Part shown: positions 59,818-62,680 of the stretch, one piece after another
How positions within the stretch are numbered: position 1 is the stretch's first letter
How the letters are laid out: every line of letters begins with the position of its first letter
Virus record (IMG/VR): IMGVR_UViG_3300025617_000018
Location: 287 to 64,286 of that record
DNA from: a virus
Lineage: Duplodnaviria; Caudoviricetes
Direction: 5' to 3' (one strand)
DNA: 64,000 nt
Program-made: the position numbers and the translations under genes
The notes under the pieces: model-generated
Told to the model about the DNA's origin: nothing
What the model saw: only the letters and a program-made list of their open reading frames with translations
The model's database searches: none

Positions 59818-60017
59818 GGTTTGAATTCTCCAAAAACATCTGGTGCTTGTTCTTCAGCTAGGTCCATGTAGTAGGTGCTAGGATAATGTTTCAAACAACG
59901 ATACGCCTGTTCTCGAATATACTTTGGAACTCGTGGAGTCTTACTAGGATCCATCAAATCTTTTAAAAACTGTTCTGTGTTAAGAACTGCGTGTTTGCGT
60001 TCAATAGGTAGTGTCAT
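59814..60017 (-). CDS. Small conserved phage protein
   Basis: MTLP.ER...TPRVP...LKHYP motif. Confidence 0.6.
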   Translation of the reverse strand: MTLPIERKHAVLNTEQFLKDLMDPSKTPRVPKYIREQAYRCLKHYPSTYYMDLAEEQAPDVFGEFKP

Positions 60018-60403
60018 TAGAACAACTCCTTCTCTGTTAATACTTTAAACTCATAGCCCATTTTGTTACAGTAGTCTTCTGCAGAACTCCACTTGGCTCG
60101 ATTCTTTTTATATTTACGCTGGAAGTGTGGTTTGATCTCTACAACAATGGTTCTGCCGTCGTAGGTCTTTACAACAAAGTCTGGGTAGTAGTTGTGCCAC
60201 TTATCATCGTCTTCGAAGTAATAAGGAATGTGTAGTTCTTCCGAACTCCACTGTACGATCTTGTCACTGCGGTCACAGTACAACATAAAACGTCTTTCCC
60301 ACATACTTCTGTAGGTGATGCGATTTATATTGCCTGCATACTTTGCAGGATATTGCGGCTTGTACTTGCCGCGGATTGCTGTTAATGCATTTGACTTTTT
60401 CAT
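60017..60403 (-). CDS. Head-completion nuclease-like protein (T4 gp4-like, PD-(D/E)XK)
   Basis: KYAG...YRSMWE...WSSEE...YYPDF...EIKP...KW..A. Confidence 0.75.
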   Translation of the reverse strand: MKKSNALTAIRGKYKPQYPAKYAGNINRITYRSMWERRFMLYCDRSDKIVQWSSEELHIPYYFEDDDKWHNYYPDFVVKTYDGRTIVVEIKPHFQRKYKKNRAKWSSAEDYCNKMGYEFKVLTEKELF

Positions 60404-60444
60404 ACTAACAGTATACTATATTTTTATACCGTGTCAACCGAAAA

Positions 60445-60528
60445 TGGAGTGAGCGACAGGACTTGAACCTGCATAGTCTTACGACACGGATTTGCAATCC
60501 GTTGCATAACCATTTCTGCCACGCTCAC
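60445..60528 (-). tRNA. tRNA-Cys(GCA) with extended variable arm
   Basis: Acceptor GTGAGCG/CGCTCAC, U73, CCA; anticodon arm ACGGA-TTGCAAA-TCCGT; V region GTC-GTAA-GAC-TAT. Confidence 0.9.
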
Positions 60529-60532
60529 ATAT

Positions 60533-60616
60533 TGGCACAGGGTGAGGGATTCGAACCCCCTGACTCTCGTCCTGGTTTTGGAGACCAGTGTGACACTCCA
60601 ACTTCACCGACCCTGC
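60533..60616 (-). tRNA. tRNA-Trp(CCA) with extended variable arm
   Basis: Acceptor GCAGGGT/ACCCTGT, G73, CCA; anticodon arm CTGGT-CTCCAAA-ACCAG; V region GAC-GAGA-GTC-A. Confidence 0.88.
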
Positions 60617-60627
60617 ATTGTCTTTAT

Positions 60628-60656
60628 ATAGTAAGTTCTTTTTTGAATGTTGTCAA
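60628..60656 (-). promoter_or_regulatory. Sigma70-type promoter for tRNA-Trp/tRNA-Cys
   Basis: TTGACA-17-TACTAT. Confidence 0.65.
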
Positions 60657-60663
60657 CCAGAAA

Positions 60664-60738
60664 TGGAGCGGCGAAGGAGAATCGAACTCCTATCCACAGG
60701 GTGGAAGCCTGTTATAATAGCCATTATACGACCGCCGC
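60664..60738 (-). tRNA. tRNA-Gly(TCC)
   Basis: Anticodon arm ACAGG-CTTCCAC-CCTGT; U73; CCA end. Confidence 0.92.
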
Positions 60739-60944
60739 TAAATTGCTATGCCTTCTAACAAGTTCCAACCGCCTGTAATACCGTGATCATTACCAGTCTT
60801 GATACAAACAGCATATGATCCAGTTTTATACTTACGGTTATAAGTTTCTAGGTACTTGTTACGCACGGCATAAGTGTAGTTTATGTTATCTGCTTCTCGT
60901 CTAATAGTTTTTCCATTAGACATTTCTACTTCAACCCAATACAT
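60738..60944 (-). CDS. Small hypothetical protein
   Basis: 68-aa ORF coupled to the upstream stop. Confidence 0.5.
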   Translation of the reverse strand: MYWVEVEMSNGKTIRREADNINYTYAVRNKYLETYNRKYKTGSYAVCIKTGNDHGITGGWNLLEGIAI

Positions 60945-61255
60945 TATATACTTTCACCTGGTTCAAAAAACTGGAAGTTTTGACCACTTGTAAATACGCA
61001 AGTAGTATTGTTGTCTTTGTTGACAACTAAAAAACTCCAAGTTTGTGTTTCCGTATTTACCCAAAGTGAATTATATAAAGGGCTGCTATTGCCTTGTGAT
61101 ATGCCCTCACTCAAAAAAACTAGTTCTTCATTGTACTTATTTTTAACAATATTCAGTACGTCTTGTGTTGGACCACACTGCACAGGTATTTCGTATGTTT
61201 TTGCTTTTACTGGTAGGACAATGAGCAAGAACAGTGCCAATACAATATATTTCAT
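60944..61255 (-). CDS. Secreted/periplasmic small protein
   Basis: Signal peptide MKYIVLALFLLIVLPVKA; two Cys. Confidence 0.65.
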   Translation of the reverse strand: MKYIVLALFLLIVLPVKAKTYEIPVQCGPTQDVLNIVKNKYNEELVFLSEGISQGNSSPLYNSLWVNTETQTWSFLVVNKDNNTTCVFTSGQNFQFFEPGESI

Positions 61256-61261
61256 TTTAAT

Positions 61262-61328
61262 CTCCCGTCGCGGGAGCAGTTTCAAGACTTACTCGGGTCC
61301 TACCTTTCCTGGGCACCACTTGCTTGAT
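61262..61328 (-). promoter_or_regulatory. Structured 5' leader with SD-sequestering hairpin (cis-regulatory candidate)
   Basis: CTCCCG-CGA-CGGGAG covers the SD; competing GAGTAAGT/ACTGCTC helix whose loop CTTGA matches upstream TCAAG. Confidence 0.45.
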
Positions 61329-61358
61329 TATTTTAAAAGAGAAACAAGACTCTTTAAA

Positions 61359-61435
61359 TGGTGCCGTTGAAGGGAGTCGAACCCCCAACCTTCTGGACCT
61401 AAACCAGACGCCTCTGCCAATTGGGCCACAACGGC
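61359..61435 (-). tRNA. tRNA-Leu(TAG) with short variable loop
   Basis: Acceptor GCCGTTG/CAACGGC, A73, CCA; anticodon arm TCTGG-TTTAGGT-CCAGA; V loop AGGTT (5 nt). Confidence 0.88.
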
Positions 61436-61452
61436 ATATATTGTATTTATAC

Positions 61453-61527
61453 TGGTGCTCACGGAGAGAATCGAACTCCCAATCTACGCATTACAAGTGC
61501 GTTGCCTTACCGTTGGGCCACGTGAGC
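61453..61527 (-). tRNA. tRNA-Thr(TGT)
   Basis: Anticodon arm ACGCA-CTTGTAA-TGCGT; CCA end. Confidence 0.92.
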
Positions 61528-61535
61528 ATACTATT

Positions 61536-61625
61536 TGGCGGAGATAGTAGGATTCGAACCTACGGAACGATTTCTCGTTCGACAAGTTAGCAACCTGCTG
61601 CTTTAAGCCACTCAGCCATATCTCC
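61536..61625 (-). tRNA. tRNA-Ser(GCT)
   Basis: GCAGG-TTGCTAA-CTTGT; long V arm; G73; CCA. Confidence 0.92.
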
Positions 61626-61677
61626 TTGTTCGGGACTGTCTTTCTGCTAGGCAAGGCGCAGTCATTCCGAATAAAAG

Positions 61678-61832
61678 TGGAGTGGGTGGAATAGGGTAAC
61701 CACCAAGGAAGTACTATCCGAAGTACCTTTCTTCACTAGACTTCCTACGTCCTGCACCTCGCTAAAGGACCGGCGCTACCGGCTTTCGGACTACCTTACC
61801 CCCCTTCGGCGAGAGGTATTCGGTCACACTCC
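61678..61832 (-). ncRNA. Unidentified structured RNA (~155 nt) ending in CCA
   Basis: GGAGTG/CACTCC closing stem, several internal helices, possible TCCGAA/TTCGGA pseudoknot; lies between tRNAs. Confidence 0.65.
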
Positions 61833-61856
61833 TTTTAGAGTCCGTCGACTCTAAAA
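61833..61856. other. Perfect 10-bp hairpin between tRNA-Asn and the ncRNA
   Basis: TTTTAGAGTC-CGTC-GACTCTAAAA. Confidence 0.7.
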
Positions 61857-61857
61857 C

Positions 61858-61938
61858 TGGCTCCCAAGGTTGGATTCGAACCAACATTGCTTTCGCACGG
61901 ATTAACAGTCCGCTGTATTACCTATCTACCACTTGGGA
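61858..61938 (-). tRNA. tRNA-Asn(GTT) with extended variable region
   Basis: Acceptor TCCCAAG/CTTGGGA (U1-A72), G73, CCA; GCGGA-CTGTTAA-TCCGT; V region GC-GAAA-GC-AAT. Confidence 0.9.
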
Positions 61939-61947
61939 ATAAAATTT

Positions 61948-62085
61948 ATTAAAAAGCACACTAGGTTTACTATCCTCTTGCTACCTATTGTTGCCCTGCT
62001 ATGCAGAACAGTTACTAGTATCATAGGCTCTCCGCTTTGGACAAGGTTCAGCTTGCGGCCTCACGAGCCTAGTATGCTTTTTAAT
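61948..62085 (-). ncRNA. Unidentified rod-like structured RNA (~138 nt)
   Basis: 18-bp closing stem ATTAAAAAGCATACTAGG/CCTAGTGTGCTTTTTAAT; internal helices; TAAGTA motif immediately upstream. Confidence 0.6.
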
Positions 62086-62089
62086 ATAC

Positions 62090-62680
62090 TTATTTCTGTC
62101 CTTCTACAACAATATTATATATTTCTTTCCAGTTGCGAACTCGTGTCACTCCACTGTATTCGCCCTGGTTGTGTTTGTGATCCATTAACAAGGATACCAA
62201 ACCTAAATCTCTTCCTACTAGTGCATTCTGTGGTTTGTCTTCGACCCAGTAGCAACCAGTATCTGCATACCATTCTAACACTTCGTCTTTGTCAGCACCT
62301 GTGTCTAGGTACACATATTTCTCAAATACACTATCTCCAAACATCTCACGCAGGTTCTTTGTGCGTAGGTGTTGCGAGTAGTCGTCGTTACTTAAACTTG
62401 TAATAGCATGGAACACATACCCGTGTTCACTGTGCAACTTCTTCACATAATGAATAGCATCTCGTAGTGGCGGAAGTTTACGAATCCAAGCACTTTCGTT
62501 GAACATACGAATAAGACGCATGCCTTCTACTTTTCCTAAACCATACTTGAGATCCATCAAGTATTCTGTTTCAAATCCTGGATTAACACTATAACCGTGT
62601 CGATTCATCCACTGTCCGAACGCATACTCCCAATCGAAGAGGACGCCGTCACAATCTACCAATATTGCCTTTTCTTTCAT
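62090..62680 (-). CDS. HAD-family 5'(3')-deoxyribonucleotidase-like phosphatase
   Basis: LVDCDGVL motif I, ITS motif II, K, VEDKPQN motif IV. Confidence 0.85.
   Translation of the reverse strand: MKEKAILVDCDGVLFDWEYAFGQWMNRHGYSVNPGFETEYLMDLKYGLGKVEGMRLIRMFNESAWIRKLPPLRDAIHYVKKLHSEHGYVFHAITSLSNDDYSQHLRTKNLREMFGDSVFEKYVYLDTGADKDEVLEWYADTGCYWVEDKPQNALVGRDLGLVSLLMDHKHNQGEYSGVTRVRNWKEIYNIVVEGQK

Follow-up and report, generated by a model that had tools for sequence, protein, structure and literature searches.

Added variable-arm hairpins on phage tRNA-Cys, tRNA-Trp and tRNA-Asn, a widespread and fast-evolving trait

Why do three tRNAs of a marine phage, all of isotypes that are normally short-armed, carry a hairpin in the variable (V) region? 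The textbook rule for bacteria confines a long variable arm to the Leu, Ser, Tyr and Sec tRNAs. The question is raised by a window of 64,000 nt (positions 287 to 64,286) which makes up nearly the whole of the 64,286-base marine viral metagenome record IMGVR_UViG_3300025617_000018, and whose source is, by its CheckV completeness of 18%, a fragment of a very large phage. ARAGORN called seven minus-strand tRNA genes in 60445-61938 of this window, namely Cys(GCA), Trp(CCA), Gly(UCC), Leu(UAG), Thr(UGU), Ser(GCU) and Asn(GUU), and the unusual arms are found on tRNA-Cys (60445..60528, 84 nt), tRNA-Trp (60533..60616, 84 nt) and tRNA-Asn (61858..61938, 81 nt). We consider it probable that these are cognate decoders of the ordinary kind, each with an added hairpin that is selected and evolves fast and that may shield the tRNA from nucleases of the host.

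The ARAGORN bracket output gave a V region of 13 nt in tRNA-Cys (60473..60485, minus strand; a GUC-GUAA-GAC hairpin followed by UAU), of 11 nt in tRNA-Trp (60561..60571, minus strand; GAC-GAGA-GUC followed by A) and of 11 nt in tRNA-Asn (61886..61896, minus strand; a GC-GAAA-GC mini-hairpin followed by AAU). These agree to the letter with a first-pass annotation of the window, which had proposed a fold check, and the same calls bear out its 7/5 cloverleaves, encoded CCA ends, U73 in Cys, G73 in Trp and U1-A72 with G73 in Asn. The Rfam tRNA model (RF00005) treats the extra bases as inserted sequence that lies between the anticodon arm and the T arm. It scores Cys, Trp and Asn at 55.2, 39.8 and 58.6 bits, and with their 7-bp acceptor stems, 5-bp T stems and 7-nt anticodon loops the three are canonical elongator tRNAs; all seven tRNAs of the cluster lie above the gathering score of 29 and encode CCA. 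The V stems measure 3 bp in Cys, 3 bp in Trp and 2 bp in Asn, capped by GUAA, GAGA and GAAA, and the hairpin is contained in the ViennaRNA centroid structure of all three molecules. As the whole-molecule z-scores are weak (-2.71, -0.32 and -1.26, respectively), the case for non-chance hairpins rests on relatives.

With regard to class, the three tRNAs have a V region of at least 10 nt with a stem-loop, as is typical of class II, and lack the class II combination of anticodon and discriminator (Leu/Ser/Tyr/Sec), their anticodons being GCA, CCA and GUU and A73 being absent. The class II type of D stem (3 bp, with a non-Watson–Crick 13:22 pair) is seen in tRNA-Cys and tRNA-Asn, both of which have G13.A22; tRNA-Trp has a 4-bp Watson–Crick D stem, a 10-nt D loop and a G1.U72 first pair. 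All three are 7/5 folds, so that none has the 8/4 or 9/3 branch of the allo-tRNAs.

Relatives in viral contigs reveal how the arms arose. Siblings of the window tRNA-Cys with the same acceptor stem and T arm and a V loop of 5 nt occur on five contigs (L055, L059, L088, L184 and L198), and alignment to two of them (L198 and L184) leaves a single difference, an uninterrupted insert of 8 nt that precedes the final three bases of the V region. A tRNA-Asn sibling (L011) likewise has the same acceptor stem and a V loop of 5 nt. Given such siblings, identical in the acceptor stem and with 5-nt V loops, the arms of Cys and Asn were inserted into class I tRNAs, before positions 46-48. The idea that a Tyr, Leu or Ser tRNA had been converted through a changed anticodon found no support, as the armed tRNAs have no close relative of another isotype (best identity 0.72-0.79). 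Descent of the armed tRNA-Trp from a class II tRNA-Tyr, which has a similar D loop, found no support either: Tyr is absent from the best cross-isotype matches, whose top identity is 0.75. Apart from this, one locus (L240) holds a G73-bearing tRNA-Trp(CCA) that agrees with the Cys family in its anticodon stem and T arm and is 79% identical to the window tRNA-Cys. Such a gene suggests that the isotype was switched from GCA to CCA through a change of one anticodon base and of the discriminator.

An exact 42-base search for the window tRNA-Cys arm in viral contigs gave 0 matches, and degenerate patterns were therefore used. In 2.9 million viral contigs we searched for T arms lying at a long distance behind an Asn or Trp anticodon arm. 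The Asn and Trp long-V scans gave at least 118 stretches each and the complete Cys scan 61, and according to ARAGORN these hold at least 88, at least 72 and 42 distinct armed tRNAs, respectively. A V stem of at least 3 bp is possible in 71 of 88 Asn and 59 of 72 Trp long-V regions (among the matches listed) and in 33 of 42 Cys long-V regions, counts which all lie above the maxima reached in 200 shuffles (56, 48 and 27). When 12 sequences of the Trp family were aligned, three of the five V-helix pairs had changed on both sides, and the whole structure was better than all 500 shuffles and all slid controls. The arms themselves differ widely within each family. For tRNA-Cys with the same acceptor stem we found GUC-GAAA-GAC, GUC-GUAA-GAC, GUC-GUUA-GAC, GUC-UUAG-GAC, CC-GAAA-GG and ACC-GCAA-GGU. 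The closest relative of the window tRNA-Asn (L318, 94% identical) bears GCC-AUUC-GGC-AAU, while others carry GC-GAAA-GC or GC-UUCG-GC, which means that tetraloops have been exchanged on Asn bodies that are 84-94% identical. The Trp arm GAC-GAGA-GUC-A recurs identically in at least 10 other viral loci, and relatives have the longer GACUA-GAAA-UAGUC and GAUUA-GAAA-UAAUC. From the compensatory changes in Trp, the loop swaps in Asn and the counts beyond 200 shuffles it follows that the arms are under selection for pairing, while their sequence turns over fast.

The first-pass annotation had argued from three different insertions of the same architecture to selection. Its argument stands as far as pairing is concerned, but the phage does not carry the trio as a coordinated feature: every arm is part of a separate, widespread tRNA family, and relatives carry other combinations. 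Three contigs (G402, G403 and G405) have an armed Cys with short-armed Trp and Asn, a fourth (G406) has an armed Cys and a short-armed Trp (Asn was not found on that contig), one (L147) has both Cys and Trp armed, and one (L088) has an armed Trp with a short-armed Cys. The three arms are thus not inherited together. Once the record of the window itself was set aside, the best 80 of 195 confirmed loci related to it by a neighbouring gene contained 6 tRNA-Cys, 7 tRNA-Trp and 2 tRNA-Asn, and not one was armed, so the nearest phages by that gene are without arms.

These observations bear on the idea that the hairpin is a handle for a phage-encoded protein, such as a modification enzyme, or a mark by which a phage nuclease spares the phage tRNAs during degradation of those of the host. 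In its favour, the trait is phage-biased, and V-arm size and cap are uniform across isotypes in these clusters. We nevertheless regard this explanation as improbable, since the loops differ even in near-identical tRNAs (GAAA, UUCG, AUUC), against sequence-specific recognition, relatives carry different armed subsets, and the neighbouring genes (a TnsA-like nuclease, an NT5C-like protein and proteins of unknown family) offer no candidate partner.

How common are such arms? The design is widespread: phage tRNA clusters often have it, and this phage is one case among many. When viral contigs were scanned without regard to length, 16 of 119 Asn motif matches were long-armed. On the contigs found by an armed tRNA, a V region of at least 9 nt was present in 96 of 861 distinct neighbouring tRNAs of class I isotypes; the armed share was 39% for Asn, 21% for Cys, 18% for Thr and Val, 17% for His, 16% for Trp and Lys, 15% for Met, 13% for Ile and 1-2% for Arg, Asp and Pro, figures which come from contigs chosen for one armed tRNA and are not population estimates. 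The reverse change was observed as well: in the same sample 26 of 106 distinct Leu tRNAs have lost the usual long arm (V region of at most 7 nt). The tRNA-Leu(UAG) of the window (61359..61435, minus strand) has a 5-nt V loop in place of the long arm and has kept A73 and the Leu-type D arm (3-bp stem, 11-nt loop); the window combines three armed isotypes with an arm-less Leu. Its Leu(UAG) relatives show mini arms of 10-12 nt, for example GC-GAAA-GC (L011, L055, G403 and G406). As a separate observation, tRNA-Ile(UAU) can have V regions of 20-25 nt, far beyond the mini arms (contig L055, 9419-9512; contig L059, 4433-4526). A length of at least 20 nt was noted in 6 of 13 tallied Ile(UAU) calls, and also in both Ile(UAU) calls from the loci of the neighbour-gene relatives.

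The spread over isotypes could reflect a tolerated, essentially neutral expansion. On this explanation the variable loop is the one spot where extra bases do little harm in fast-evolving, weakly constrained phage tRNA genes, and only compact stable hairpins survive, so that pairing is kept without a function. Arms on many isotypes, at frequencies from a few percent to 39%, fit it, as do the Leu tRNAs that lose their arm in the same clusters, the quick turnover of loops and stems, the close relatives without arms and the generic nature of GNRA caps. It is less at ease with the strong skew between phages and cells (see below), with the persistence of arms in groups as divergent as T5-like phages, phiKZ, CcrColossus and marine jumbo phages, with a Trp arm that is identical in at least 10 other loci, and with the finding, described in passages of PMC12673091, that V-loop length matters for defence escape in tRNA-Tyr. 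Taken together we judge neutral expansion to be possible, though on the unlikely side.

The first-pass annotation had also pointed out that each hairpin is closed by a different GNRA tetraloop. This cap is no special signature of the added arms: it makes up 49 of 66 tetraloops in Asn and 31 of 51 in Trp (among the matches listed) and 23 of 33 in Cys (61-74%), and it is equally usual on the phages' own Ser and Leu arms, where in the same clusters 35 of 50 Ser, 31 of 49 Leu and 5 of 20 Tyr arms with tetraloops have it. The added arms of Asn, Cys and Trp most often leave 0-1 nt unpaired on the 5' side of the stem and 3-4 nt on the 3' side, a spacing which a plain insertion ahead of positions 46-48 would give and which resembles that of phage Tyr, not Ser or Leu. 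The window tRNA-Trp, with 0 before and 1 after, is of a minority type. A class-II-like D stem of 3 bp is commoner in long-armed than in short-armed Trp tRNAs (37 of 72 versus 5 of 26, Fisher p=0.005, among the matches listed), while for Asn the difference, again among the matches listed, is not significant (43 of 89 versus 9 of 27, p=0.19).

Both results touch on the suggestion that the hairpin aids folding or processing, by stiffening the core of tRNAs that are rich in A and U or poorly modified, or by helping excision from a polycistronic precursor. The predominance of stable tetraloops (GNRA, UUCG) would agree with such an aid, and the D-stem shift in Trp suggests a co-adapted core. Against this, the shift is not significant in Asn and siblings of the same body do without the arm, and we think this explanation quite unlikely.

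Armed tRNA-Asn genes are rare in cells. Across 185,579 species genomes (one genome per species) the long-distance Asn pattern matched 43 stretches, of which ARAGORN confirmed 13 as armed tRNA-Asn; 8 of these 13 belong to arrays in which 3 kb hold 5-24 tRNAs, and the others among the 43 are truncated repeats, Ser tRNAs or without a call. In 400 genomes of one bacterial class, the length-blind search gave 22 Asn matches, none of them long and all with normal spacing, to be compared with the 16 of 119 in viruses (Fisher p=0.08, the bacterial sample being small). The possibility that such arms are common in host tRNAs of these isotypes, which the first-pass annotation named as fatal to its reading, is therefore not borne out for Asn, the isotype covered by these scans. 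Three of the cellular loci (L508, L510 and L514, from Micromonospora and Verrucosispora) have 13-24 tRNA genes within 3 kb, including an armed tRNA-Asn with a 17-nt V region, and look like mobile tRNA arrays. The matches from Saprospiraceae and Peribacteria were discarded as armed Asn because they are truncated tRNA repeats or Ser tRNAs. In the Saprospiraceae contigs (L517, L505 and others) tandem repeats fuse the truncated 5' part of a tRNA-Asn to an unrelated hairpin, with three copies about 128 bp apart beside an intact tRNA-Asn.

The same design can be recognized in well-known phages. Many T5-like phages of Salmonella and Escherichia share, with 100% identity, an 83-nt armed tRNA-Asn that is annotated as tRNA-Asn; it is covered to at least 80% in 521 of 561 matching records. 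Like the tRNA-Asn of the window, that of the T5-like phages (e.g. NC_092682.1, 85685-85767) and PHIKZ_t02 of phiKZ have the Asn anticodon and G73; their V arm has a 3-bp stem and a GAAA cap followed by 3-4 unpaired bases. The phiKZ tRNA-Asn measures 87-89 nt and has GGC-GAAA-GCC with a class-II-like D arm, but the phiKZ-type bodies differ, with 74-76% identity or less to the window tRNA-Asn. T5 itself has a 78-nt tRNA-Asn without such an arm, a 76-nt tRNA-Cys and a 71-nt tRNA-Trp. For Trp the nearest likeness is in Caulobacter phage CcrColossus, whose tRNA-Trp of 86 nt shares the Trp anticodon and G73 and has a GGC-GCAA-GCC V hairpin, though its body and spacing differ (3 unpaired bases at the 3' side versus 1 in the window). 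Eukaryotic tRNAs with V arms and anticodons other than Ser, Leu or Tyr are said to have been found by Hamashima et al. in 2016.

Three other systems are similar in part. Bacterial class II tRNAs also have a stem-loop between the anticodon and T arms, and a G13.A22 D stem is present in the window tRNA-Cys and tRNA-Asn. Anticodons and discriminators differ, and the V stems in the window are much shorter and derived from class I siblings by insertion. The bacterial allo-tRNAs (PMC5389517) combine a long V arm with an anticodon other than Ser, Leu or Tyr as well, but have 8/4 or 9/3 acceptor/T branches and serine-type identity, while the window tRNAs are 7/5 with cognate identity sets. The tRNA-Tyr of phages SP15 and T5 has, as set out in parts of PMC12673091, a V region that differs from the host's and is required for defence escape. 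Tyr is, however, already long-armed in bacteria; the window arms are added to normally unarmed isotypes and have no linked defence system. In the literature, including a term search of PMC10264068 and with the T5/BF23 tRNA papers of the 1980s outside that search, we found no description of phage tRNAs of class I isotypes that bear long V arms.

Would the added arms change what the tRNAs are charged with? According to passages of PMC9976931, a tRNA is marked as Cys by U73 and GCA, as bacterial Trp by its discriminator, CCA and first acceptor pair, and as Asn by its anticodon and G73; for Ser, the long arm is the main determinant together with G1-C72 and G2-C71, and E. coli LeuRS is described there as not needing the Leu arm. 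The cognate major determinants are present in all three tRNAs (U73 and GCA in Cys, G73 and CCA in Trp, G73 and GUU in Asn). Their first two acceptor pairs are G-C/U-A in Cys, G.U/C-G in Trp and U-A/C-G in Asn, so that the set of G1-C72/G2-C71, which bacterial tRNA-Ser conserves, occurs in none. With cognate determinants retained and the Ser set absent, altered charging, one of the roles put forward in the first-pass annotation, appears unlikely from the sequences. We infer that the three are charged and decoded normally, because the synthetases read anticodon and discriminator, and EF-Tu and the ribosome accept longer arms.

It is accordingly very improbable, in our view, that the tRNAs have changed identity through charging by SerRS, TyrRS or LeuRS with recoding of Cys, Trp and Asn codons, or, alternatively, that the insertion is spliced out again. 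The place of the long V arm as the main serine determinant (parts of PMC9976931), the G73 of Trp and Asn, as in tRNA-Ser, and the Ser-like spacing of the Trp arm (0 unpaired at the 5' and 1 at the 3' side) would speak for such a change. They are outweighed by the missing G1-C72 and G2-C71 in all three, by stems of 2-3 bp where phage Ser tRNAs of the same loci have 5-6 bp, by the lack of the A73 needed for Leu and Tyr, by intact cognate sets of anticodon and discriminator, and by acceptor stems shared with short-armed siblings. As to splicing, the insert of 6-8 nt lies outside the anticodon loop and has no intron features (group I, bulge-helix-bulge).

Contigs from two metatranscriptome libraries of different studies fall on the window stretch; one covers 61791-62000 with 0 differences and spans the whole tRNA-Asn including its arm. 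Another RNA-library contig holds a relative's tRNA-Cys with GAAA as the arm loop, and a GUUA variant was also found. No junction that skips the arm was seen in the RNA-library contigs (4 runs), which cannot show mature ends, strand or level. These contigs hint that the tRNA stretch is transcribed.

We return to the account that we prefer, in which ordinary decoders carry a selected hairpin. The phage tRNAs would read Cys, Trp and Asn codons and be charged by the host CysRS, TrpRS and AsnRS. In each, 6-8 nt inserted before 46-48, on the 5' side of the variable loop, would form a stem of 2-3 bp with a stable tetraloop. The arm would sit on a side of the L shape that presumably need not be read by these synthetases, EF-Tu or the ribosome; as all of them already accommodate the longer Ser, Leu and Tyr arms, decoding would be unchanged. 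Arms would be gained, lost and exchanged gene by gene among phages, as a largely phage-specific variant, and selection would maintain the hairpin while its sequence changes quickly. The arm may alter the surface of the tRNA where anticodon stem and core meet, so that host tRNA nucleases or toxins would bind or cut the phage copy less readily than that of the host.

The purpose of the arm is thus possibly escape from tRNA-directed nucleases of the host, an explanation that we favour because of the phage bias, the fast evolution of the arm, the precedent of the SP15 tRNA-Tyr and the cut sites of Septu and AriB. Passages of PMC12673091 state that the longer V loop of the SP15 tRNA-Tyr is required to neutralize the PtuAB of Retron-Eco7, and Septu cleaves the V loop of tRNA-Tyr, as stated in parts of PMC13096335. 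AriB of the PARIS system cleaves tRNA-Asn, tRNA-Lys and tRNA-Thr at 40|41, a site three bases short of the V region, and depends on contacts distant from the anticodon loop (both from sections of PMC12409363). The published PARIS results on T5 relatives proved uninformative here, as the armed-Asn phage GreteKellenberger (Bas26) is not among the phages tested. It would go further to say that extra V hairpins are a general virus-specific architecture evolved to escape tRNA-targeting immunity, that the Cys-Trp-Asn trio records three defence pressures from the marine host, and that the hairpins block nucleases like PARIS AriB, PtuAB/Septu or VapC, which grip the junction of anticodon stem, core and V loop, with charging and decoding left intact; this we hold to be doubtful.

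Several points weigh against a selected, protective hairpin. Neutral expansion explains most of the data as well, and arms on at least 15 isotypes fit a general tolerance as well as a specific defence. The AriB-type site UAAUC is kept alike in armed and short-armed phage tRNAs, albeit in small numbers (5 of 8 versus 7 of 13 for Asn, 2 of 9 versus 20 of 40 for Lys and 2 of 8 versus 12 of 30 for Thr), a negative outcome that agrees with neutrality. The V stem of the window tRNA-Asn is just 2 bp long, the V lengths come from ARAGORN alone, the scans were limited to particular anticodon-arm and T-loop sequences, and the RNA evidence consists of contigs from libraries with possible DNA carry-over.

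If the arm protects, it would constitute a second escape route, by shape, beside the known mutations of the anticodon loop. If it is neutral, it shows a structural freedom of the translation machinery that would be useful for engineering tagged or orthogonal tRNAs. In either case the textbook rule on long arms fails for phage tRNAs, given an arm on about one in eight sampled phage tRNA-Asn genes and on many further isotypes, and examples have long been present in phiKZ and T5-like genomes. For annotation this means that armed tRNA genes risk being mis-typed or missed.

The remaining tRNAs of the cluster, tRNA-Gly(UCC) (60664-60738), tRNA-Thr(UGU) (61453-61527) and tRNA-Ser(GCU) (61536-61625), are all on the minus strand and of ordinary architecture according to ARAGORN and Rfam, the last with an 18-nt V arm capped by GAAA. 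Directly upstream of the Trp-Cys pair lies a sigma-70-like promoter match, TTGACA-17-TACTAT (60628..60656, minus strand), which agrees with the consensus at 10 of 12 positions and is a consensus match only. Near-identical promoter-like TTGACA elements stand after tRNA-Gly (60628-60656) and after tRNA-Cys (60410-60437). Among the open reading frames of the window are long tail-fibre-like proteins, a DNA ligase and a Lon-like protease, and directly after tRNA-Cys an open reading frame with a TnsA-like endonuclease domain (60017-60403, minus strand; Pfam PF08722, E=1.4e-16). An AsnRS-like gene was sought beside tRNA-Asn; the upstream open reading frame (62090-62680) is NT5C-like instead. Between tRNA-Asn and tRNA-Ser we observed a match to the manA RNA motif (RF01745; 61675-61856, minus strand) of 51.5 bits, to be read against a gathering score of 55.2 (E=2.3e-11), and RNA-library contigs cover this stretch with 0 differences. 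The 154 nt directly upstream of tRNA-Asn (61939-62092, minus strand), which have no Rfam match, form a closed fold with a long terminal helix (-47.8 kcal/mol, z=-4.18) that none of 200 shuffles equals in stability, and may be a structured leader or a stable RNA.

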